Source: a virus. Taken from it: DNA of 64,000 nucleotides. Below, in pieces: positions 19,257-60,595 of the stretch. The stretch is taken from IMG/VR virus record IMGVR_UViG_3300046463_000164; one strand, written 5' to 3'. The translations under genes and the position numbers were made by a program. The notes beneath the pieces are model-generated. The model saw only the letters and a list, made by a program, of their open reading frames with translations, was not told the DNA's origin and did not search any database. Numbering within the stretch: the stretch's first letter is position 1; every line of letters begins with the position of its first letter.

Positions 19257-20450
19257 ATGAAGATTGCTGCAATTTATTGGCCCACATCTTCAGTGGGCGG
19301 CATTAACACGTTGTTTGAGTCTCTACGGAAAGCGGCCATTGCCCAGGGTGATGAGTTCGACGTCATCCGTTGCGGTAATCTGAAAACCATCAAACCCGAG
19401 AAGTTTGCTGAACCGAAGTTGATTCGCGGTGGGGATACTTTCATTACGGTTCATGGCGATTCGTCGCATCACCCGGATCAGATCCAAGGCACGATCAAGT
19501 GGCTTGAAGAAAATTATGACGCGGTGTATTTCGGCTACTTGTGTCCGCACGAAAACAAGGCGTATGGCAGCGAGCCGGTATTCATGCCGATGTATACTGA
19601 TCTGAAACTTCCAAAGGTATCGTGTATTGTTGATGCCTATTGGGATTCGTATGCAGATTGGGCAATTCCCTGCTTCCCTCATATTAAGCGGACTGTGGTA
19701 TCGCAAATCGCCTACGCTGAACCGTTGGTGAAGATGGGTATGCCGGTAGAAGCGATCAAGGCTCCCATTACTCCGAAGCTGAATATTCAATCCGTTCGCA
19801 GCGACGAATCTCTGACGGTCTGGACTTCCCAATGGAAGACGATCAAAGGTATTGACAAGCTGCTTCCTCATATTCCGGCAATCTCGGAAGTCTCTAAGGT
19901 GGAGTTGTATTCCAATGGGATTCTGTACTATCAGATTCGGGAAGATGAAGAGTGGAAAGCTGCAGTCGGTAAGGATCACTTTAAGGAGTTCAACGGTTAC
20001 GGAAAGGCTGAGTTCTTTGGGTATGTTTCAACAGATGAAATCCCGGAGATTCTGACCCGTTCTTGGTTTATGATCGACCTTCAAGGTATTGGCAAGCCTA
20101 AGCATGAAGCATACCGGAATGGCGCTTACAACTATACGACCATCGAGGCGTTGCTGTATGGGTCTTGTCCTATCCTGCACGCTCAGGCGCTGAAGTCTAT
20201 TATCCCCAAGGAATTCTTCTTGACGATTGAGCATCCGAAGGAAATTGCAGAACTGATTCGTACCAGCAAGGATTTTGCTCTTGATCCGGTCCGTCAGAAG
20301 AACGCGCGTGAATGGGTATTGGACATTCACTCGGATTCAGCGACGTATAACGTCATCAAGGAGTCGTTCGCGCTCCCTGATCCGGTTGTGGATATCTCTG
20401 GTTTCTTGAAGAAAGATGAGCCAGCTGATCTTTTCTCTATGTTTGGTTGA
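19257..20450 (+). CDS. GT-B fold glycosyltransferase (GT4-like), soluble
   Basis: N-terminal VGGINT; WKTIKGID; FFGYV; C-terminal YTTIEALLYGSCPIL (EA-x-x-x-G-x-x-P); no TM segment. Confidence 0.8.
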   Translation: MKIAAIYWPTSSVGGINTLFESLRKAAIAQGDEFDVIRCGNLKTIKPEKFAEPKLIRGGDTFITVHGDSSHHPDQIQGTIKWLEENYDAVYFGYLCPHENKAYGSEPVFMPMYTDLKLPKVSCIVDAYWDSYADWAIPCFPHIKRTVVSQIAYAEPLVKMGMPVEAIKAPITPKLNIQSVRSDESLTVWTSQWKTIKGIDKLLPHIPAISEVSKVELYSNGILYYQIREDEEWKAAVGKDHFKEFNGYGKAEFFGYVSTDEIPEILTRSWFMIDLQGIGKPKHEAYRNGAYNYTTIEALLYGSCPILHAQALKSIIPKEFFLTIEHPKEIAELIRTSKDFALDPVRQKNAREWVLDIHSDSATYNVIKESFALPDPVVDISGFLKKDEPADLFSMFG

Positions 20451-20461
20451 GGTTGCTAAGT

Positions 20462-21061
20462 ATGAGTGTGAATAAGAAGGTTGTAGTTCTAGTTGAACCC
20501 CACGCGGATGACATCTATCTCAGTTGTCATCAACATGCTGTAGATTGGGTGAAGGAAGGAAAGGTTGTAGTGATCGTCACCGTCTTTTCGGGAACCCGGA
20601 AACGGGCGCGCGACGGCACCAGCTACGCAGATGCAATCGGTGCTACCTGGATCGGCTTAGGGTTTGATGAGTTCGCTGAGCCTGATATCCGCAATGCGTA
20701 TTTGAACACGCCGTTTGATCCCCTGCCGGGTAATCTCAGCCTGATCTATGAGGCTAGTGAGGTTCAGGTAGTTTCCCCGCTAGGTATCCAGAACCCCGAT
20801 CACCAGGCTGTTCGTGAGTGGCTAAAGGCTTCTAATGACCAGTTGCGCTATTATGCGGAGATTCCGTATTATACGAAGCTGAAGAATCAAGAAGAAGTCA
20901 ACGGACTGATTGTTGGCAAGGTGATTGATAGTATCAAGAAGCCTAAGCACACAAAGGCTGACGAGAAGTATTGGAAGTGTTTTAAGGATCAAGCGAAGTT
21001 TTTCCACTTTAACCCGCCGGAATCTTACAAGGATGTCCCGGAACTTTTGGTGACAGATTAA
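20462..21061 (+). CDS. PIG-L/LmbE-family N-deacetylase
   Basis: VEPHADD, VTVFSG, NPDH, YAEIPYY. Confidence 0.85.
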   Translation: MSVNKKVVVLVEPHADDIYLSCHQHAVDWVKEGKVVVIVTVFSGTRKRARDGTSYADAIGATWIGLGFDEFAEPDIRNAYLNTPFDPLPGNLSLIYEASEVQVVSPLGIQNPDHQAVREWLKASNDQLRYYAEIPYYTKLKNQEEVNGLIVGKVIDSIKKPKHTKADEKYWKCFKDQAKFFHFNPPESYKDVPELLVTD

Positions 21062-21714
21062 TGGCTGTAGTCAAGCATATACATATCATCGGAGCAGGCG
21101 GTCATGCCAATGTGGTGTTGGATATTGTTGAAGAGTTGAGGAAATATGTAGGAATCAACATCTATGCCGATTCCTATGATCCCGTAGCCAACAATAGATT
21201 TTGGGACTATCCTATCAAGGGATCGGCCACTGACTTCTTTTCAGAAGTCAAATACAACTGGAATCATGACTATATTGTGGCCATCGGAGACAACTCCGCT
21301 CGCGGTAGGTTGTCGGAGAGTTTCAAGTTGGCGACTAAGCGTAAGCCCGTCACCCTCATCCATCCTAAAGCTATAGTGAGCGATAGGGCCAAGATTGGCC
21401 ACGGCACGGTGATTATGGCAGGAGCAGTTGTTGGTCCTGGGGCTGTCATTGGCGATAATTGTATTATCAATCACGGAGCAACGGTTGATCATGATTGTAT
21501 GCTTGAAGATGCAGTTCATATCTGTCCTGGAGCGCATATTGCTGGTGCAGTCAAGGTCGGAAAGGGCGTTCAGGTCGGCATCGGTGCCAGTGTTATACAA
21601 GGCATAAGTATTGGTGAATATACCACCATCGGTGCCGGAGCAGCAGTTGTAAGTGATATCGCCGGTTGGGTAACAGCGGTCGGAGTCCCGGCCAAGGTAA
21701 TTAAGGAATATTGA
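21061..21714 (+). CDS. Sugar N-acetyltransferase, PglD/NeuD family
   Basis: IIGAGGHANVV, VAIGDN..R, IHPKA, hexapeptide repeats with VDHDC, VGVPAK. Confidence 0.92.
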   Translation: MAVVKHIHIIGAGGHANVVLDIVEELRKYVGINIYADSYDPVANNRFWDYPIKGSATDFFSEVKYNWNHDYIVAIGDNSARGRLSESFKLATKRKPVTLIHPKAIVSDRAKIGHGTVIMAGAVVGPGAVIGDNCIINHGATVDHDCMLEDAVHICPGAHIAGAVKVGKGVQVGIGASVIQGISIGEYTTIGAGAAVVSDIAGWVTAVGVPAKVIKEY

Positions 21715-21715
21715 A

Positions 21716-22900
21716 ATGTTGAATGCAGGTATTAGTCCGTGGCCGTTTTATGCTCAAGATGAACGTGATGCGGTTCAGAACATATTGATTTCAGGCAAGG
21801 TGAATCAGTGGACGGGCACGGAAGTCAAGGAATTTGAGAAAGAGTTCGCAGAGTATATTGGGACATCATATGCAGTAGCGGTATCAAACGGCACGGTGGC
21901 GTTGGATCTGATTCTCCAATATTGTTTGTTGGGTGCCATCGATGCAGAAGTTATTGTGACGTCCCGGACTTTTATTGCATCGGCTAGTTCCATTATCATG
22001 GCGGGAGCAAAGCCGGTATTTGTGGACGTTGATCCGAAGTCTGGCAATATCACTCCTGAAGCAATTCGAGCAGCGGTCACGGAGAATACTGTAGCAATCA
22101 TCTGTGTTCACTTGGCTGGTTGGCCTTGTGATATGGACCCGATCATGGAGATTGCAGCTGATAATGGACTGTATGTAATCGAAGATTGTGCACAGGCTCA
22201 TGGCGCGATCTATAAGGGTCGCAAGGTCGGTTCCATCGGTCACGCGTCTGCTTGGTCTTTCTGTCAAGACAAGATCATGTCGACAGGCGGTGAAGGTGGT
22301 ATGATCACAACCAACACGTCATTCATTTGGACCTATTGTTGGTCCAAGAAGGATCACGGCAAGAGTTATTTTGACGCCGTGATGCGTAAGGATCATGCTC
22401 CTGGTTTCCGTTGGTTGCATAGTAGTATCGGGTCGAATTACCGTATGACCGAAATTCAAGCCTCAATCGGTCGTATTCAGCTACGCAAGCTGGAAAGTTG
22501 GGTCAGCACCCGCAATTATATTGCGGACGAGTTGAATAAGGTGGCTTGGCCGCTTTCTGCTGTTCGTATTGAATGGTGCGACTTCCCCGATAGTCGCCAT
22601 GCTAAGTACAAGCATTATATGTATGTAAATCCTGAAGGTCTCAATGAAGGTTGGGATCGGGAAAGAATAATCAAGGAATTGATTGCCGAAGGAGTTCCCT
22701 GCTACCACGGTTCTTGTTCAGAAGTTTATCTGGAAAATGCGTTTGACGGACATTACAAAACTCTGCCGGTAGCAAAGGAGTTGGGTGAGACTAGCCTGAT
22801 GTTCTTGGTTCATCCGACCATTAACATGATGGAAGTCCACAATATGACTGAAGGACTTCGCAAGGTGCTCACAGCCGCTTCAAAATCTTGTAGAGAATGA
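21716..22900 (+). CDS. DegT/DnrJ/EryC1/StrS PLP sugar aminotransferase (PglE / Neisseria PglC-like)
   Basis: SNGTVAL, VHLAGWPCDM, IEDCAQAHGA, SFCQDKIMSTGGEGGM, GSNYRMTEIQA. Confidence 0.93.
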   Translation: MLNAGISPWPFYAQDERDAVQNILISGKVNQWTGTEVKEFEKEFAEYIGTSYAVAVSNGTVALDLILQYCLLGAIDAEVIVTSRTFIASASSIIMAGAKPVFVDVDPKSGNITPEAIRAAVTENTVAIICVHLAGWPCDMDPIMEIAADNGLYVIEDCAQAHGAIYKGRKVGSIGHASAWSFCQDKIMSTGGEGGMITTNTSFIWTYCWSKKDHGKSYFDAVMRKDHAPGFRWLHSSIGSNYRMTEIQASIGRIQLRKLESWVSTRNYIADELNKVAWPLSAVRIEWCDFPDSRHAKYKHYMYVNPEGLNEGWDRERIIKELIAEGVPCYHGSCSEVYLENAFDGHYKTLPVAKELGETSLMFLVHPTINMMEVHNMTEGLRKVLTAASKSCRE

Positions 22901-24018
22901 CGGATATAAGAATTAAGGACACTCCCAGCAATATTGCTGATATATTGATGGGACGTGATCCCGTTGAACCCGATGCAAAACTAATCCAAGAAAATATCAA
23001 AGACAAAGCAGTGTTGGTGACTGGCGCAGGTGGTTCCATCGGGTCAGAGATTTGTCGTCAAGTCGCCAACCAAGGTCCGAGTGTATTGGTATTGTATGAG
23101 TTGAACGAGTTTGCTCTCTATACAATCCACGTCGAGCTAATGCGAACTCACCCGCACGTTAAGGTCATCCCCGCTTTGGGCTCGATCTTGAATTGTTCGC
23201 GGGTGTCGTATTTCCTCAGCAAGTTTAACATCAATACCATTTATCATGCGGCGGCGTATAAGCATGTTCCAATGGTAGAGTATAATATCACTGAGGGCGT
23301 ATATAACAACTTTATTGGAACTGCTGCCTTGGTTACAACAGCAGACGGCAATGTAGATACTTTTGTGCTTGTGTCTACTGATAAGGCGGTTAGACCGACT
23401 AATGTGATGGGGGCAACTAAGCGTTTGTCTGAGATGTATGTTCAGGCCGTGCAGGAACGTCGTCATCGGACTAAGACAACGTTCTCAATGGTTAGGTTCG
23501 GGAATGTTCTTGGGTCCTCAGGATCAGTGATTCCGTTGTTTCTAGAGCAGATTGCAAGGGGAGAACCTTTGACGGTCACCCATCCTGATATCACACGCTA
23601 CTTCATGTCGATTCCTGAGGCTGCTCAGTTGGTTATTCAGGCAGGAGCAATGGCAACTGGCGGTGAAGTATTCGTCCTGGATATGGGTGAGTCTGTGAAG
23701 ATTGTAGATATGGCCAAGCGTTTGCTTCAACACTACAATCTACCTGAAAATCATTATGAGATCACTGGGTTGCGTCCCGGCGAGAAGCTGTATGAAGAGT
23801 TGTTGATTGGTGATTCGGTCGGAAACACATACCATCCTAGGATTATGAAAGCGAATGAATTTCATCCTTCATATTCCCGTATGCTCGACATTTACGATAT
23901 AATAGAAGAATGCTACCATAGTATGGATTTCAAGAGACTGTTTAACGTGCTAGAGCACAATGTTTCTGGATTCAATCATTCCGGCGAGATAAAGGATCAT
24001 TTGTATGAGCATAATTAA
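22897..24018 (+). CDS. UDP-GlcNAc 4,6-dehydratase, PglF/CapD/WbpM catalytic domain only
   Basis: TGAGGSIG, HAAAYKHVP, STDKAVRPTNVMGATK, VRFGNVLGSSGSV, GLRPGEKLYEEL; no N-terminal membrane domain. Confidence 0.93.
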   Translation: MTDIRIKDTPSNIADILMGRDPVEPDAKLIQENIKDKAVLVTGAGGSIGSEICRQVANQGPSVLVLYELNEFALYTIHVELMRTHPHVKVIPALGSILNCSRVSYFLSKFNINTIYHAAAYKHVPMVEYNITEGVYNNFIGTAALVTTADGNVDTFVLVSTDKAVRPTNVMGATKRLSEMYVQAVQERRHRTKTTFSMVRFGNVLGSSGSVIPLFLEQIARGEPLTVTHPDITRYFMSIPEAAQLVIQAGAMATGGEVFVLDMGESVKIVDMAKRLLQHYNLPENHYEITGLRPGEKLYEELLIGDSVGNTYHPRIMKANEFHPSYSRMLDIYDIIEECYHSMDFKRLFNVLEHNVSGFNHSGEIKDHLYEHN

Positions 24019-24469
24019 GGCGGTAGACCGCGCCTACAAAACGATGAAAGAGCGTAATTGGAACACCATCTATTGGGCGGTGGACCTACACGGCGTGTGT
24101 CTGAAGTCGAATTATCAGCAAGGTGGATACAGTTGGATCAATATCCACGCGCGTCGAGTATTGAAGCTCATCAGCCGACTTCCTGAAACTAAGATCATCT
24201 TGTGGTCGTCGGTGTATGATTTGGAGAAGGGAGATATCATCGACTTCTTTGAAGAACATGGTATTCATGTTTCAGACTTCAACAGCAATCTGAGCGAGGG
24301 CAATACTCACGTTTCTGATTTCTCGCAGAAGTTTTATTTCAGCGTCCTGTTGGACGACAAAGCGGGTTTCGATCCTGAAACCGATTGGTTGGCAATTGAA
24401 AACTATCTTTATGATAAAGGAATATTAAATGCAAACGAAGGAAAAGCCGGTAGTACATTACATTGGTGA
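24005..24469 (+). CDS. HAD-like phosphatase (phage type)
   Basis: YWAVDLHG, IILWSS, LLDDKAGF. Confidence 0.6.
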   Translation: MSIIKAVDRAYKTMKERNWNTIYWAVDLHGVCLKSNYQQGGYSWINIHARRVLKLISRLPETKIILWSSVYDLEKGDIIDFFEEHGIHVSDFNSNLSEGNTHVSDFSQKFYFSVLLDDKAGFDPETDWLAIENYLYDKGILNANEGKAGSTLHW

Positions 24470-40857: not shown

Positions 40858-41394
40858 TCATTTTTCACCTAAGAGTGCCCTTGCTTTAATATAAGCTTGG
40901 AAGGTTAATCCATCATAACAATCGCATTTGACGTGGTAGTCTCCATACGGAGCAATATCAGAATCATCATCCAGGATAATAAACATCTTGGTGATGAGAT
41001 CGTTTCGCTTGAGCCAATCCTTGATCTCAGCCCCACGACGATTGTCCGGATCAGAGTAATTGCGTAAACTCTGAGCCGTTCTCCATTCTGTATCTGACCT
41101 TAGAACATAAGAACCAAGATTTGGACAGGCCGCATTTAGGATCGATGCAAACGATAGATAGTTGATATCACCCAAACGCCAGGTTGAAGAGATAACCAAC
41201 TTACAATCGAAGTCTTCACAGAGTCGCCGTAGCAGCAAACAAGCGATTGGATCTAGATACGACCAGCATCCAAAATTACCCGAAGCGATGCAGGCGCGTG
41301 GGGTACATAATACCCCGTCCATGTCCAGGAAGATGATATTGCTTGCAGTTTGATATTGGGCAAGATTAATTGCCTCTACTAATTCTTCTCGCAA
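40858..41394 (-). CDS. HAD-domain protein (Swiss-army-knife RNA repair-like HAD)
   Basis: IFLDMDGVL, VISSTWR, RGAEIKDWL, IILDDDSD. Confidence 0.8.
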   Translation of the reverse strand: MREELVEAINLAQYQTASNIIFLDMDGVLCTPRACIASGNFGCWSYLDPIACLLLRRLCEDFDCKLVISSTWRLGDINYLSFASILNAACPNLGSYVLRSDTEWRTAQSLRNYSDPDNRRGAEIKDWLKRNDLITKMFIILDDDSDIAPYGDYHVKCDCYDGLTFQAYIKARALLGEK

Positions 41395-42105: not shown

Positions 42106-42300
42106 TTAGCGGCTCAGCACGTGCTGGCAATACATCCATGAATGATCTTGGCGACACTCGTGCCAGATGTCGATGTCGTAGCTGATGCTGAGGTAGACTA
42201 TGGTGAATGTTGCTAGCAACACCAAACCCACAGCCAGCCACCCAATAAGTTTGTCCATCAACGAACGCTTACGTTTAACTTGTCTCATCATTTGCTCCAC
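42106..42300 (-). CDS. Small membrane protein
   Basis: One TM segment; overlaps the telA end. Confidence 0.5.
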   Translation of the reverse strand: MEQMMRQVKRKRSLMDKLIGWLAVGLVLLATFTIVYLSISYDIDIWHECRQDHSWMYCQHVLSR

Positions 42301-43427
42301 GAAAGCATTTCGGTTTTCATTTCATTCCGCAGAACATCGATTCGATTCGAAGCCTCAATACGTTCTTGATGGCCCTTCTCTTGGATGTCCTTCACGGCAT
42401 GGACGCTGTCGATCAGAGTCTTTTGCATGAACTCCAGGGTATCCATATCCACAACCGAGCGTTCGGATGCTTGGGCCACAGCGATTGCATTCTGGCCGTT
42501 CAGCTCAGCCGCCTTACGGAAGAATTCGTTTGTCTTGTCGTCCACTTGTGTGCTCAGTTCCGCATTTTCCTTCTGCTTGATCTTCAGAATTGTCATAGAC
42601 AATTGCTTTTTCCAAGCAGGGATAGTTGTATTAACCAGATCGCTGAACTTCTGATACAGCGCCGTATTACCGGATTGAATCTGGCGAATTTCTGGTGCAG
42701 TCAGGAGAGCAATCTGTTGAAGCCGCTTCAGACGGTCAACTTGCTTATCCCACAGCTTAATCCGCTGTTCAAGCTCATTGACTTCCTGGATGAAGAACTG
42801 ATCGGTTGACTTCTCAGCTTCAACCTTCTTGATCGCGTGTTCTTGACCGAGAACTTGAATCTCAGCTTCGATTTCAGCGATTGCTTTCTCAAGCCCGCGA
42901 TATTCTTCCAGATTGGCGTCATACAGCTTATCCAGAAACTCATTATCCTGCTCCATCGTCTTGCTGCGACTGGTTAGATCAGTGGCAACTTTGTCGATGG
43001 AGGTGCTGGTGTTCTCGAATTGAGCCAGAACTTCAACCCTTTTCTTCTTGAAGAAAGAAGTCACCCCGCCAAACCAACCGCCCTTCTTGTCTACATTCAG
43101 ATCAGCAACGTTGACCTGTGACGTCAGGGAAAGAATCTGGGTGATGCCATCCCCAAAGTCGCCCATCTTGCCGGTCGTAGTTTTCTTCACAACGACATCG
43201 GCCAGTTCAGCAATCTTCTTACCGTGCTCAGTGCCATACTCGCTGATCTTCATCGAACTCTTGATGCCATTCGACTTCACGAGAGCCGTCTGACGAACCT
43301 GAACCAACTGCTGATTGGTCGGAATGTCTTGCACAAACTGAACGTTATGCGGGTTGGTTCCTGTAACCGTTCCGGTCATAACAGGCTTGGTCTTAGGCAC
43401 ATCTTCAAACAAATTACCGTAACTCAT
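42288..43427 (-). CDS. TelA-family toxic anion resistance protein
   Basis: LDKLYDANLEEY, QQIALLTAPEIRQIQSGN, TTIPAWKKQL, VVDMDTL. Confidence 0.85.
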   Translation of the reverse strand: MSYGNLFEDVPKTKPVMTGTVTGTNPHNVQFVQDIPTNQQLVQVRQTALVKSNGIKSSMKISEYGTEHGKKIAELADVVVKKTTTGKMGDFGDGITQILSLTSQVNVADLNVDKKGGWFGGVTSFFKKKRVEVLAQFENTSTSIDKVATDLTSRSKTMEQDNEFLDKLYDANLEEYRGLEKAIAEIEAEIQVLGQEHAIKKVEAEKSTDQFFIQEVNELEQRIKLWDKQVDRLKRLQQIALLTAPEIRQIQSGNTALYQKFSDLVNTTIPAWKKQLSMTILKIKQKENAELSTQVDDKTNEFFRKAAELNGQNAIAVAQASERSVVDMDTLEFMQKTLIDSVHAVKDIQEKGHQERIEASNRIDVLRNEMKTEMLSWSK

Positions 43428-56092: not shown

Positions 56093-57178
56093 TTACACCT
56101 CTACGTCAAACTTACGGAAACTCGACTCATAGATCGAACGGGAAAGCTCAGCAGACAGTCCGGTGAGGTCTATCGCCGTAGTTAGTACGGTTCCCCGCTT
56201 AGAAGCGATGTAGTGAGCTACTAGCTGTGCGTACAGCCACAAAAGATTACCTTCCAGAGGCACGTTGAAGTTAATAAACAGATGACCCAGGTTATGGATC
56301 ATTGTGCCTAGAACAAAGTCAGGTTCATCAGTTGTAATGCCTTCCGTCAGCATCGCTACAATAGCACTGAAGAAACTCTTCCAATGAAGAATATCAGGAC
56401 CGATGATCGGCATATGATTTTCTTCAGTTGATGTCAGATAATTGCTTTTGTTCGCAATCGCCGCATCAGCCTGCTCCCTGGAAAAGTCGTACAGGTGAGC
56501 ATTGGTGACGTGCCAACGATACGGACCAAGTTTCAAACCTGGGTAGTTCTTCTTGATCTCGTTGAACATCAACTCATGCAGGAATGAGAATTCGAACGGA
56601 TTGATAGAACCGGTACCAAAGATGATATCGCCTGAGCGCTGGATGACCTTGGTGCAGAACTTATCTTCGCCTTCAACATAGAAGTTGATACCCAGGTTGC
56701 AAGGTCGATCCTTACCTAGTTCCCCATAACCAAAACGGTCTTCAATCGCTTCAGTCGAATCCTTATGGATATCGTGAATCGATACAAACGCGCGGCGAGT
56801 GTAGAGACTATCACGGCGGAATAGATCAGGCATAGATACAATCTGACGTTGGTCATAGAAACGCGGACCATAAGCGCCAGACCAAGTCACACCGTCATCT
56901 GAATACTGGGGCGCGCGTGGCAGGAAGAAGGACAGATAAGGGTTCACACGATCATCGCCCGCCATAACCCAAAAGGTTTCAGCGATCAAAGCGAAGATAT
57001 TAGATTTGCGACCTGCGAGAGAAAGGTGACGCGAGCGGGGATTTGTTACTTCAAAGGTTGTATCGAAAATTGAAGTGCAACCGCCGTTACGGGATGGCCG
57101 ATAATGGCCTTCATGGATGATTTTGTTGAAACCTGCGAGTACTACACTTGAAACGCTACTACCAGAAACCAAATGCAT
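56093..57178 (-). CDS. Thymidylate synthase homolog: dUMP hydroxymethyltransferase
   Basis: YSDDG.TW.GAYGPR, TRRA, catalytic PCN, QRSGD..FG...IN (Asn = dUMP specificity), HLY; resembles the SPO1/PhiW-14/ViI-type enzyme rather than ThyA. Confidence 0.82.
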   Translation of the reverse strand: MHLVSGSSVSSVVLAGFNKIIHEGHYRPSRNGGCTSIFDTTFEVTNPRSRHLSLAGRKSNIFALIAETFWVMAGDDRVNPYLSFFLPRAPQYSDDGVTWSGAYGPRFYDQRQIVSMPDLFRRDSLYTRRAFVSIHDIHKDSTEAIEDRFGYGELGKDRPCNLGINFYVEGEDKFCTKVIQRSGDIIFGTGSINPFEFSFLHELMFNEIKKNYPGLKLGPYRWHVTNAHLYDFSREQADAAIANKSNYLTSTEENHMPIIGPDILHWKSFFSAIVAMLTEGITTDEPDFVLGTMIHNLGHLFINFNVPLEGNLLWLYAQLVAHYIASKRGTVLTTAIDLTGLSAELSRSIYESSFRKFDVEV

Positions 57179-58183: not shown

Positions 58184-58206
58184 TTGTAACTATGTAAATT
58201 AAAACA

Positions 58207-58234
58207 AAGAAAAGGGCGCCAACTTCAGCGCCCT
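58207..58234 (-). terminator. Terminator after the tRNA-like RNA
   Basis: AGGGCGC-TGAAGTTG-GCGCCCT followed by TTTCTTT (- strand). Confidence 0.75.
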
Positions 58235-58254: not shown

Positions 58255-58344
58255 TGGTGGAGGCGACGGGACTTTAACCCGCACCCGGTCGTCCAAACGG
58301 ACCGTGCATCATCACGTGGGTTGGCCCACCAATACTACGCCCCC
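58255..58344 (-). tRNA. Atypical tRNA-like RNA (Ala-type acceptor stem, non-standard D and anticodon loops)
   Basis: GGGGGCG/CGCCTCC-A-CCA acceptor with G3:U70; T arm GCGGG-TTAAAGT-CCCGT; anticodon stem CGGTC/GACCG with a 9-nt loop; 22-nt D loop. Confidence 0.7.
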
Positions 58345-58351
58345 AATGACC

Positions 58352-58735
58352 TTACAGCGCTTTCCAAAGCATAGCGATGAGAGAGCACAGACCATCCAAG
58401 AAGGATATCAGGCCGCTCTTGAAAGCATCGCCTTGAGCCGGGAAGTGCTTCTGGAACACTTCGCAGACTTTGAGCAGCAGATACGCCCCAGCAAATATCA
58501 GCAGATACGTCTTAATACTTCCGCCACTGTCCGAGTCGTCAGAACTGCTCGAATGAGCACTTGAACCGCTAGGATAATCGAAACTACCCGGCTCCAACCC
58601 TCGCTGGCGATAGAGCATGTCAATCTCAACCGCCTTCCAGTTATCGGTATTGTTGCTTGCGAGGATTTCTTGTTCGCGGCGCTTGATTTCGATTTGTTCT
58701 GGACGGCTCAACTTTCCATTGACGATCATGCTCAT
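58352..58735 (-). CDS. Hypothetical membrane-anchored protein
   Basis: Ser-rich linker and hydrophobic segments; promoter TTTACT-N17-TATAAT (58792-58820, -). Confidence 0.55.
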   Translation of the reverse strand: MSMIVNGKLSRPEQIEIKRREQEILASNNTDNWKAVEIDMLYRQRGLEPGSFDYPSGSSAHSSSSDDSDSGGSIKTYLLIFAGAYLLLKVCEVFQKHFPAQGDAFKSGLISFLDGLCSLIAMLWKAL

Positions 58736-58875
58736 GATATATCCCCTTGAAGGAGTTAGGTTTAGTCTGCTTTCGCTCGACCTTTATACATATTATAACC
58801 GATAACACATACCCAGTAAAGAGGTTTATATGGAATTCATAAAATAAAAAATGGGAGCCGAAGCTCCCATTTTTG

Positions 58876-59601: not shown

Positions 59602-59794
59602 TGTTAGCCTCTATCTAGGGATTGTTAAAGATCGTACTACAGCCCCACTTTCCGTGAAGTGGTTAGTATTATTATATCCTGAACTCTGAAGGAAGTAAAG
59701 ACTTTACTTATTACGTAAAACCTAATATCCCAAACCGCCATCAGCAGGTCAGTTGTTCCTAAATAGATACAACACAAATCTATTTGGAGCAAGC

Positions 59795-60595
59795 ATGGAC
59801 AGAACGCCTTACACTTATCTGATCGGTTGGTCGCATTTGAATCTTTGGTATTATGGGGTTAAGTACGCCGTGGGTTGTCACCCAGATCAGCTTTGGGTAT
59901 CATATTTCACTAGCTCAAAATATGTTGCTGAAACCAGGGCTGAACACGGAGAACCTGACATTGTTGAAATCCGTAAAGTATTTGATGATACCAAGTCAGC
60001 TAGATATTGGGAGAATACGGTTCTAAGGCGTTTGAAGGTAGTATATGACGATAAGTGGCTAAACAAGACAGACAATAAATCCATATCGCCTGAATGCTGT
60101 AGTCATCAAAAATGTCTTGGTCTTAAACGTTCCGAAGAATCAAGAGCTAAGATGAGAAAATCTTGGGAGACTAGAGACCCAATTTCTGAAGATACGAGAG
60201 AGAAGTTAAGAGTTGCTGCTACATCTAAGCGCCATTCAGAAGAATCAAAAAAGAAAATTAGTGAAGGCAATAAAGGCAAAACTCTAACCGAAGAACATAA
60301 AGATAAGGTTAGACAAGCTAGAATTGGGTCAAAGGCTAGTGATGAGACCAGAATAAAGATGTCTGAATCGGCAACAGGTAGAAAGATGTCAGCCGAATCT
60401 ATTGAGAAAACTGCTGCTGCCCATAGAGGAAAATCTAAACCTAGCGAGAAAATCAAAGATCATGCTAGAAGGCTAGGTCAAATCAAAATGACGTGCCCTC
60501 ATTGCAATAAAGAAGGATCAATGGCCAACATGAAACGTTGGCACTTCGATAATTGTAAATCTAAACCTTCTGATCTATTTGAACTGTTCGAATAA
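59795..60595 (+). mobile_element. Free-standing GIY-YIG-like (Seg-type) homing endonuclease with NUMOD3 repeats
   Basis: YTYLI...WYYG, YFTSS, WE..L, WLN; repeats RSEESRAKM / HSEESKKKIS / SDETRIKMS; C-terminal CPHC...WH..NC; opposite strand to its neighbours; CTAAATA at 59759. Confidence 0.85.

Follow-up and report, generated by a model that had tools for sequence, protein, structure and literature searches.

Can an RNA gene with a complete alanine acceptor end, without a conserved anticodon and without a message, be anything other than a worn-out tRNA gene, and if so, what would it be for? This question is raised by a tRNA-shaped RNA element of 90 nucleotides (nt) on the minus strand of a 64,000-nt stretch of viral DNA (IMG/VR record IMGVR_UViG_3300046463_000164), at positions 58255..58344. 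The whole stretch is referred to here as the window, and coordinates without a contig name are those of the window. Judged by its sequence, by Rfam, by its homologs and by a covariance model of its family, the element is very probably a real and selected tRNA mimic that does not decode.

An alanine acceptor end in a cloverleaf frame

G1 of the element is at 58344 and A90, the last letter of its CCA end, at 58255, and its sequence and stems are exactly as written in the initial annotation of this DNA; all of its parts lie on the minus strand. The helix order is that of a cloverleaf, with an acceptor stem of 7 base pairs (bp), a 5-bp T stem and a 7-nt T loop. The 5' strand of the acceptor stem (58338..58344, with G3 at 58342) pairs with 58259-58265, and the 3' strand with its tail (58255..58265) supplies U70 (58261), the discriminator A73 (58258) and an encoded CCA (58255-58257). 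The G3.U70 acceptor helix is sufficient for alanyl-tRNA synthetase (AlaRS), whose determinants are G3.U70 and A73. The D region (58306..58335) forms an extended closed arm, in which a possible D stem of 4-5 bp is followed by a 5-bp hairpin (58316-58329) and a 4-nt bulge; taken as 4 bp, the D stem would enclose 22 nt, including this hairpin and its CCAA loop (58321-58324). The linkers are short, i.e. 2 nt, then 1 nt (a single A) before the anticodon-type stem, and a 3-nt variable region before the T stem. The remaining parts are an anticodon-type arm (58286..58304; a 5-bp stem and a 9-nt loop that lacks a conserved anticodon) and the T arm (58266..58282; loop at 58271-58277), in which position 56 (58275) is an A where tRNAs have C56. 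The odd loops noticed at the outset (an extra D hairpin, A56 and a 9-nt anticodon loop) are thus all present in the window sequence. In the window version, the anticodon-type loop can close further into a tetraloop hairpin. An A56-type T loop is not peculiar to this family, since two ordinary phage tRNAs (L118 and L119) share the T loop.

Two homologs place these features in an evolutionary context. The protein of 127 amino acids (aa) encoded directly upstream has one 82%-identical relative, on contig L123, which carries the RNA element at 1765-1853, and a search with the conserved 61-aa downstream protein led to contig L148, which carries it at 1341-1429 and whose upstream protein is 42-47% identical to the other two versions. 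In 3/3 lineages, the element lies 7-11 nt past the stop codon and ahead of a terminator. The alanine identity claimed initially is borne out by these homologs, since G3.U70, A73 and the CCA end are invariant in all three, as are the CCAA loop and the junction nucleotides. U54, U55 and A58 of the T loop are retained as well, and position 56 is an A in L148 and a G in L123. Four further contigs of L123-type phage from Logan (L120, L121, L122 and L124) all end 30-34 nt into the element, which suggests branching of the assembly graph, i.e. variants of the middle part of the RNA in those samples.

An alignment of the three sequences (A3; cloverleaf structure, 27 pairs) provides the covariation that had been proposed as a check in related phages. 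Across the 27 pairs, 97.5% of the pair cells are paired, and five pairs have changed on both sides, of which three belong to the D-region hairpin and one each to the anticodon-type and T stems; two more differ on one side only (G-C or G.U type). Controls with partners slid by 1-3 columns give 42-58% pairing and 0-1 double-sided changes, and the observed covariation was reached in 1/500 shuffles. The acceptor stem varies at pair 5-68 alone (G-C or G.U), its other six pairs being invariant; in the anticodon-type stem, pair 44-56 changes from U-A to C-G and pair 45-55 is lost in L123 and L148; in the T stem, pair 50-64 changes from C-G to U-A in L148. The covariation is silent on the possible D stem, because four of its pairs are invariant and in the fifth a single partner has changed (G.U to A-U). 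The stem of the terminator also shows one compensatory change (G-C to A-U in L123 and L148). The element has 91% identity between L123 and L148, compared to 60.6% (DNA) and 47% (protein) for the upstream open reading frame (ORF). Because of these compensatory stem changes, together with a conservation above that of the flanking gene, the element is best regarded as a structured RNA under purifying selection and not as a decaying gene, in line with the earlier argument against random decay. Two points weigh against this: by folding energy the element does not surpass shuffled sequence (z = -0.47), and there are only three distinct sequences, so that the covariation amounts to few events.

Several arrangements that could have tied the loops together were considered. 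G16-U17 as stand-ins for G18-G19 are ruled out, since in L148 the U17-A28 pair, which is part of the hairpin, has become C-G by covariation. A kissing contact between the CCAA loop and UUGG of the anticodon-type loop is rejected as well, the complement being present in the window only and not in L123 or L148. Finally, no antisense RNA complementary to the anticodon-type loop was found in the window beyond chance matches.

The same features bear on whether the RNA could decode. The initial suggestion of a mistranslating or frameshift tRNA, which would insert alanine at non-alanine or four-base codons, draws on the intact alanine identity beside a non-alanine loop, and frames with U33 and a purine at 37 can indeed be drawn in the window and in L123/L148. 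Such frames have to be forced, however: they read U-UGG-A (Pro-type) in the window and U-UAA-G (Leu-type) in L123/L148, each with 2-3 surplus 5' nucleotides, so that the putative anticodons differ between close homologs. The loop itself is 9 nt long in the window and 10 nt in L123/L148, with seven positions differing, and no U33-NNN-R37 frame in a 7-nt loop is common to the three homologs. An open D loop with G18-G19 is absent too, since the D region is closed by the covarying hairpin, and the T loop is therefore left without a partner for the elbow pair needed for ribosomal transit; the possible closure of the window loop into a tetraloop hairpin points the same way. ARAGORN at default settings called no tRNA or tmRNA in the whole 64-kb window, and nothing was called at the Rfam gathering thresholds; at 80% thresholds, ARAGORN returned a poor alternative cloverleaf only, which counts in favour of a decoder. 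Following these comparisons, a decoding role is very unlikely, and the element appears not to be a decoding tRNA.

Decay is, if anything, harder still to reconcile with the data. A remnant of a tRNA-Ala gene, an internally deleted tmRNA pseudogene or an attP copy of the 3' end of a host ssrA or tRNA gene would account for scores below every curated threshold and for non-canonical loops; the compensatory changes and the conservation described above, however, are not those of a remnant. An attP copy would comprise the 3' part only, whereas both acceptor strands are complete here; moreover, no integrase is among the Pfam families listed, and the window is T4-like, i.e. of a lytic type. A remnant is therefore scarcely credible.

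Between tRNA-Ala and TLD-only tmRNAs

If the element does not decode, its closest relatives become the next matter of interest. A family covariance model (R1) built from the three members scores these at 106-113 bits and anything else compared at 40 bits or less. The best match outside the family, at 40 bits, is tRNA-Ala, with which the element shares the alanine identity set, the helix order and the linker lengths (2 nt, 1 nt and a short variable region); its first ten nucleotides match those of a phage tRNA-Ala (L038). It differs from tRNA-Ala in that it lacks a 7-nt anticodon loop, a UGC or GGC anticodon and C56, in that a closed hairpin replaces the D loop with G18-G19, and in that ARAGORN is blind to it. 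In the complete genome of a relative (G001, 170.7 kb), 24 tRNAs are clustered ~85 kb away, among them a normal tRNA-Ala(UGC) with a different acceptor stem and an unrelated sequence, and this genome has no copy of the element anywhere (only ordinary tRNAs match, at 20-22 bits). It therefore seems that the element is not a copy of the tRNA-Ala of its lineage.

Searches for further members were negative within their scope. In IMG/VR, three patterns taken from the sequence of the element, exact or degenerate, had 0 matches, and a pattern of T loop plus CCA end had two, both ordinary tRNAs. A pattern of T loop plus acceptor gave six matches in a JGI metagenome set, all of them intron-form tmRNAs in which the match spans the intron-exon joint, and a 3'-end pattern gave three matches in 185,579 genomes, all odd tRNAs of metagenome-assembled genomes (MAGs) of Actinomycetota. 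The latter two groups are of some interest in themselves. The intron-form tmRNA genes (L131:45-713, L132:307-938, L134, L135:1912-2580 and L136) lie next to tRNA genes and combine an Rfam tmRNA match with a group I intron in the T-loop region; ARAGORN calls no tmRNA in them. The Actinomycetota tRNAs (L138:628-702, L138:1013-1087, L139:2672-2746 and L140:2780-2854; three MAGs, one labelled Bifidobacterium breve) are 75 nt long and called tRNA-Gly(ACC) by ARAGORN, yet have G3.U70, A73 and the same acceptor stem as the RNA element, and they may be mistranslating or mis-called.

The other candidate relative is tmRNA. The Rfam tmRNA family (RF00023) matches the element at 22.4 bits (E=7e-7 for 1 kb, 4.5e-5 for the 64-kb window), which is the sole significant RNA match in the window by Rfam E-value thresholds, and the element of L123 scores 19.7 bits; neither reaches the gathering score of 47 bits. 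The match extends end to end, with the acceptor and T arms aligned at high posterior probability and 47 nt replacing 320 model positions. The mRNA-like domain, the resume codon, a reading frame for the tag and the pseudoknots are absent, as is the D-loop analogue of the tRNA-like domain, or TLD (GG..UCGAC, with GNAC before the T stem). In tmRNA, this analogue is the platform for SmpB, i.e. the conserved core of the TLD that contacts it. The earlier tmRNA-like reading is thus partly supported by the significant Rfam match; the defining motif is absent, because of which the element is not classed as a member of the TLD-only tmRNAs; nothing resembling a Y RNA, which had also been suggested, was found.

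The nearest published parallel is mycobacteriophage DS6A, which Hudson, Lau and Williams list with a 'TLD only' tmRNA (PMC4131195; tmRNA Website tmID 11587). Two sources report that a similar molecule is a strong inhibitor of tmRNA, perhaps by titrating SmpB (PMC4131195, PMC11915505). The DS6A RNA was located at L153:28478-28560 and scores 43.2 bits with Rfam tmRNA, its D-loop analogue being aligned, and 38.6 bits with R1. Both RNAs are phage-encoded, 83-90 nt long and equipped with a 7-bp acceptor stem with G3.U70, with A73 and with a 5-bp T arm; both lack an mRNA-like domain and pseudoknots, have a short capped helix where P2 of tmRNA begins and are matched over their whole length by Rfam tmRNA, at a score under the gathering score. 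They differ in that DS6A keeps UGG..UCGAC and GCAC before the T stem, which the element (at its 22.4 bits) does not, whereas the element has cloverleaf linkers, a possible D stem, the covarying CCAA hairpin and A or G at position 56. The CCA end is fully encoded in the element, and DS6A reads CTA.

Short RNAs of this kind are also found among IMG/VR phages (76-132 nt, with closed acceptor stems and a T arm, and uncalled by ARAGORN). Candidate TLD-only mini-tmRNAs are L018:1015-1091, L081:502-578, L046:1227-1302, L003:175-254, L093:2704-2792 and one on L016 (132 nt, ending at the pattern match). Their alanine-type acceptor stems have the same sequence as that of the element; most of them, however, carry the UUCGAC...GGAC signature or a near variant, they score 22-36 bits with R1, and none has the CCAA hairpin. 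Outside phages, tmRNAs without a coding sequence (CDS) have been described from jakobid mitochondria and Mallomonadaceae plastids (PMC11915505). By description, these are likewise natural RNAs with little beyond an alanine-type TLD, and they are set apart from the element in being organellar, ~65 nt long in plastids and homologous to neighbouring tmRNAs, whereas the visible tmRNA homology of the element ends at the acceptor and T arms. More generally, virus-encoded, tRNA-like RNAs that do not decode include the stable RNAs of phage T4 (species 1 and 2) and the 3' tRNA-like structures of plant viruses, the latter being aminoacylatable and situated at the 3' end of mRNA.

Taken together, these comparisons place the element in a small family of its own, roughly as far from tRNA-Ala as from TLD-only tmRNAs. 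With the latter it shares its defining functional traits, namely alanine identity and the lack of both message and anticodon, and not their structural core.

The insertion site and its surroundings

The source of the window is an uncultured phage of ~170 kb with a T4-type gene content (RIIA/RIIB, RegA, topoisomerase II, UvsX, clamp loader and baseplate gp53). Compared with cultured phages, its DNA polymerase reaches no more than 40% identity (the closest being that of Ralstonia phage RSP15) and its DNA ligase no more than 46%, which makes it, to judge from these genes, a distant T4-like phage. The RNA element lies in an early-type gene run on the minus strand, in a unit that consists of a promoter-like site, the 127-aa ORF, 7 nt, the element and a terminator. 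The putative sigma-70-type promoter (58792..58820; TTTACT-17-TATAAT, 10/12 matches in a consensus scan) is situated just downstream of the terminator of the preceding gene (58847-58874), and the same scan found no promoter between the ORF and the element. According to the ORF list, the ORF (58352..58735) encodes a protein with one hydrophobic segment, of a family without assignment; it has zero Pfam or PHROG matches and its stop codon is 7 nt ahead of the element. An intrinsic terminator with a 9-bp stem and a T tract (58203..58234, hairpin 58213-58234) was found by a terminator scan and begins 20 nt past the 3' end of the element; all three features are on the minus strand.

The intergenic site was compared in about a dozen related lineages, three of which have the element. 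Homologs of the 127-aa ORF were found in every related phage, with or without it. The element is absent at the site in L137, L143, L144, L146, L147, L149, L150-152, L156 and the P0009 contig, in which the gap measures 64-84 nt and contains a terminator only. In L141 (1279-1450) and L142 (394-560), the same site is occupied by an unrelated insert of ~150 nt, for which neither an Rfam family nor a fold signal was found, and in L157 (303-390) and L158 by a mini-ORF of 28 aa, described as hydrophobic in L157. The gap between stop codon and terminator therefore looks like an insertion hot spot, and a canonical tRNA, which would have spoken for a pseudogene, is never found in it. A protein search for related loci in IMG/VR returned one relative only, without the element. 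In alignment A6, the sequence that follows the CCA end is homologous to that right after the stop codon in the element-less relatives, so that the element is a clean insertion of ~98 nt that separates the stop codon from an existing terminator. The 'dedicated terminator' of the initial annotation is thus real, and yet not dedicated to the RNA element, because the element-less relatives have a homologous terminator after the stop codon.

On one flank of the unit, the gene run comprises DNA ligase, a SLOG-family protein, a homing endonuclease (on the other strand) and a 241-aa ORF, and on the other flank four small ORFs, a thymidylate-synthase-like protein, a dNMP kinase and a dUTPase. Neither an integrase nor SmpB is among the Pfam families listed for these neighbours and for 56 other ORFs of the window. 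The homing endonuclease is a likely one, a 280-aa ORF with NUMOD3 motifs (59753-60595, plus strand) between the SLOG-family and 241-aa genes, and it is missing at the matching place in L120-L122. A stretch of 37 nt (58834-58870) over the terminator of the 241-aa gene recurs with 97% identity, at a site without annotation, in 24 Vibrio phage records (~125 kb each; Pontus, Achelous and others), and this is the sole near-identical DNA match of the window to cultured phages. The thymidylate-synthase-like protein (361 aa; 56093-57178, minus strand) has a modest match to Pfam Thymidylat_synt (38.1 bits) and a strong phage PHROG match; its gene is grouped with those of the dNMP kinase, a dUTPase_2 protein and a dCMP deaminase, and it may be a pyrimidine hydroxymethylase for modified DNA. 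At its position, the P0009 contig has a 690-aa gene that carries an intein and HNH domains. Elsewhere in the window (19257-24466, plus strand, and 42291-43427, minus strand), a sugar-modification set (Polysacc_synt_2 dehydratase, DegT aminotransferase and PglD-type hexapeptide acetyltransferase) occurs with TelA and TerC/DUF475 proteins of the tellurite-resistance type. A stand-alone 178-aa protein (40861-41394, minus strand), 17 kb from the RNA element, matches the HAD domain of the 'Swiss Army Knife' RNA repair proteins (PF18143, E=8.6e-18) and possibly functions in RNA repair.

Possible functions and their meaning

The leading explanation, quite possible by analogy with DS6A if still short of probable, is that the element interferes with trans-translation or with the factors by which Ala-tRNA and tmRNA are handled. 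The element would be co-transcribed with the 127-aa ORF, after which RNase P would free its 5' end and trimming of the 3' end would expose the encoded CCA. RNase P and 3' exonucleases act in this way on any transcript that is tRNA-shaped and has its CCA encoded. Host AlaRS would then charge the RNA with alanine via its G3.U70 acceptor helix. Because it has neither codon pairing nor a D-loop/T-loop elbow pair, the element would most likely act through its acceptor/T 'minihelix' half, competing with host tmRNA or Ala-tRNA. The outcome would be DS6A-like, i.e. ribosome rescue and tagging by the host would be blunted during infection, perhaps by titration of SmpB.

A number of observations speak against this proposal. 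It suffers mainly from the lack of an SmpB platform, the TLD D-loop analogue not being there, and from the cloverleaf-type junction, since linkers of 2, 1 and 3 nt with a possible D stem would leave SmpB no room as a stand-in for an anticodon arm. In addition, the T loop lacks C56, and R1 scores tRNA-Ala (its 40 bits) and TLD-only RNAs (32-39 bits) about equally. Finally, L123 and L148 have the same anticodon-type loop although their flanks have diverged, and this loop may thus carry some function.

There are also explanations in which tmRNA plays no part. The element might be bait, or a sponge, for host immunity that attacks tRNAs; as a tRNA body with a normal acceptor end that does not decode, it would divert, or itself evade, effectors that cleave or modify the tails, acceptor stems or aminoacyl groups of tRNAs, or it might block a tRNA-sensing trigger. 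The acceptor/T half and the CCA end are conserved and the anticodon-type loop occurs in two forms, as would suit such a bait, and presence or absence among close relatives is typical of accessory counter-defence genes; the phage also encodes the HAD protein of RNA-repair type. Phage tRNAs are known to counter tRNA-targeting defences (PMC10264068, PMC11555353), and effectors that cleave tRNA tails exist (PMC12851939). The known counter-tRNAs of phages, however, are working decoders that replace cleaved host tRNAs, not mimics without an anticodon; a stoichiometric decoy is an inefficient answer to an enzyme, the element is not linked to any gene of defence or counter-defence, and the retention of alanine identity in particular goes unexplained, so that bait for immunity is rather unlikely. 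In a broader form, the element would belong to a separate class that is not derived from tmRNA, namely phage 'acceptor-end' tRNA mimics, charged with alanine and rendered unfit for the ribosome by a closed D arm and by the lack of an elbow pair and of an anticodon, which would serve as bait for, or blunt, effectors or toxins acting on the 3' tail or the aminoacyl end of tRNAs, or would deliver alanine to a non-ribosomal transferase; this, too, is doubtful.

Delivery of alanine taken by itself, i.e. the element as alanyl donor for a non-ribosomal aminoacyl-tRNA-dependent transferase of phage or host, would explain why alanine identity is joined to features unfit for the ribosome (no anticodon and no elbow pair of the G19-C56 type). 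Non-proteinogenic tRNAs do feed cell-wall synthesis in some bacteria. However, no Fem/MurM-type, MprF-type, L/F-transferase or cyclodipeptide synthase is found among the neighbours or among the 25 listed of 41 matched Pfam families (64 kb of ~170 kb), and a donor role is decidedly improbable. A function in cis, in which the element is part of the 3' end of the upstream mRNA and either recruits RNase P to set this end 7 nt past the stop codon or stabilises the transcript, in the manner of tRNA-like punctuation or of viral 3' tRNA-like structures, agrees with its position 7-11 nt past the stop and ahead of the terminator in 3/3 lineages and with the lack of a separate promoter. Relatives, however, carry the homologous ORF without it, G3.U70, A73 and the encoded CCA are invariant although recognition by RNase P needs none of them, and placement between an ORF and a terminator is also common for ordinary phage tRNA genes, which leaves a cis-acting element improbable as well.

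Returning to the acceptor end itself, phage RNAs that mimic only the chargeable half of a tRNA have barely been studied, the one published case being DS6A, for which a block of ribosome rescue is reported. Such chargeable-half mimics nevertheless appear common in uncultured phages, and since both ARAGORN and the curated thresholds of Rfam miss genes like the present one, this is also a warning for annotation. The element embodies the same idea, i.e. alanine identity without decoding, on a different scaffold that lacks a recognised SmpB platform. If it is true that it inhibits trans-translation, the requirements for competition with SmpB and tmRNA would be looser than thought; if it does not, it would represent another use of alanine-charged mimics in the conflict between phage and host.

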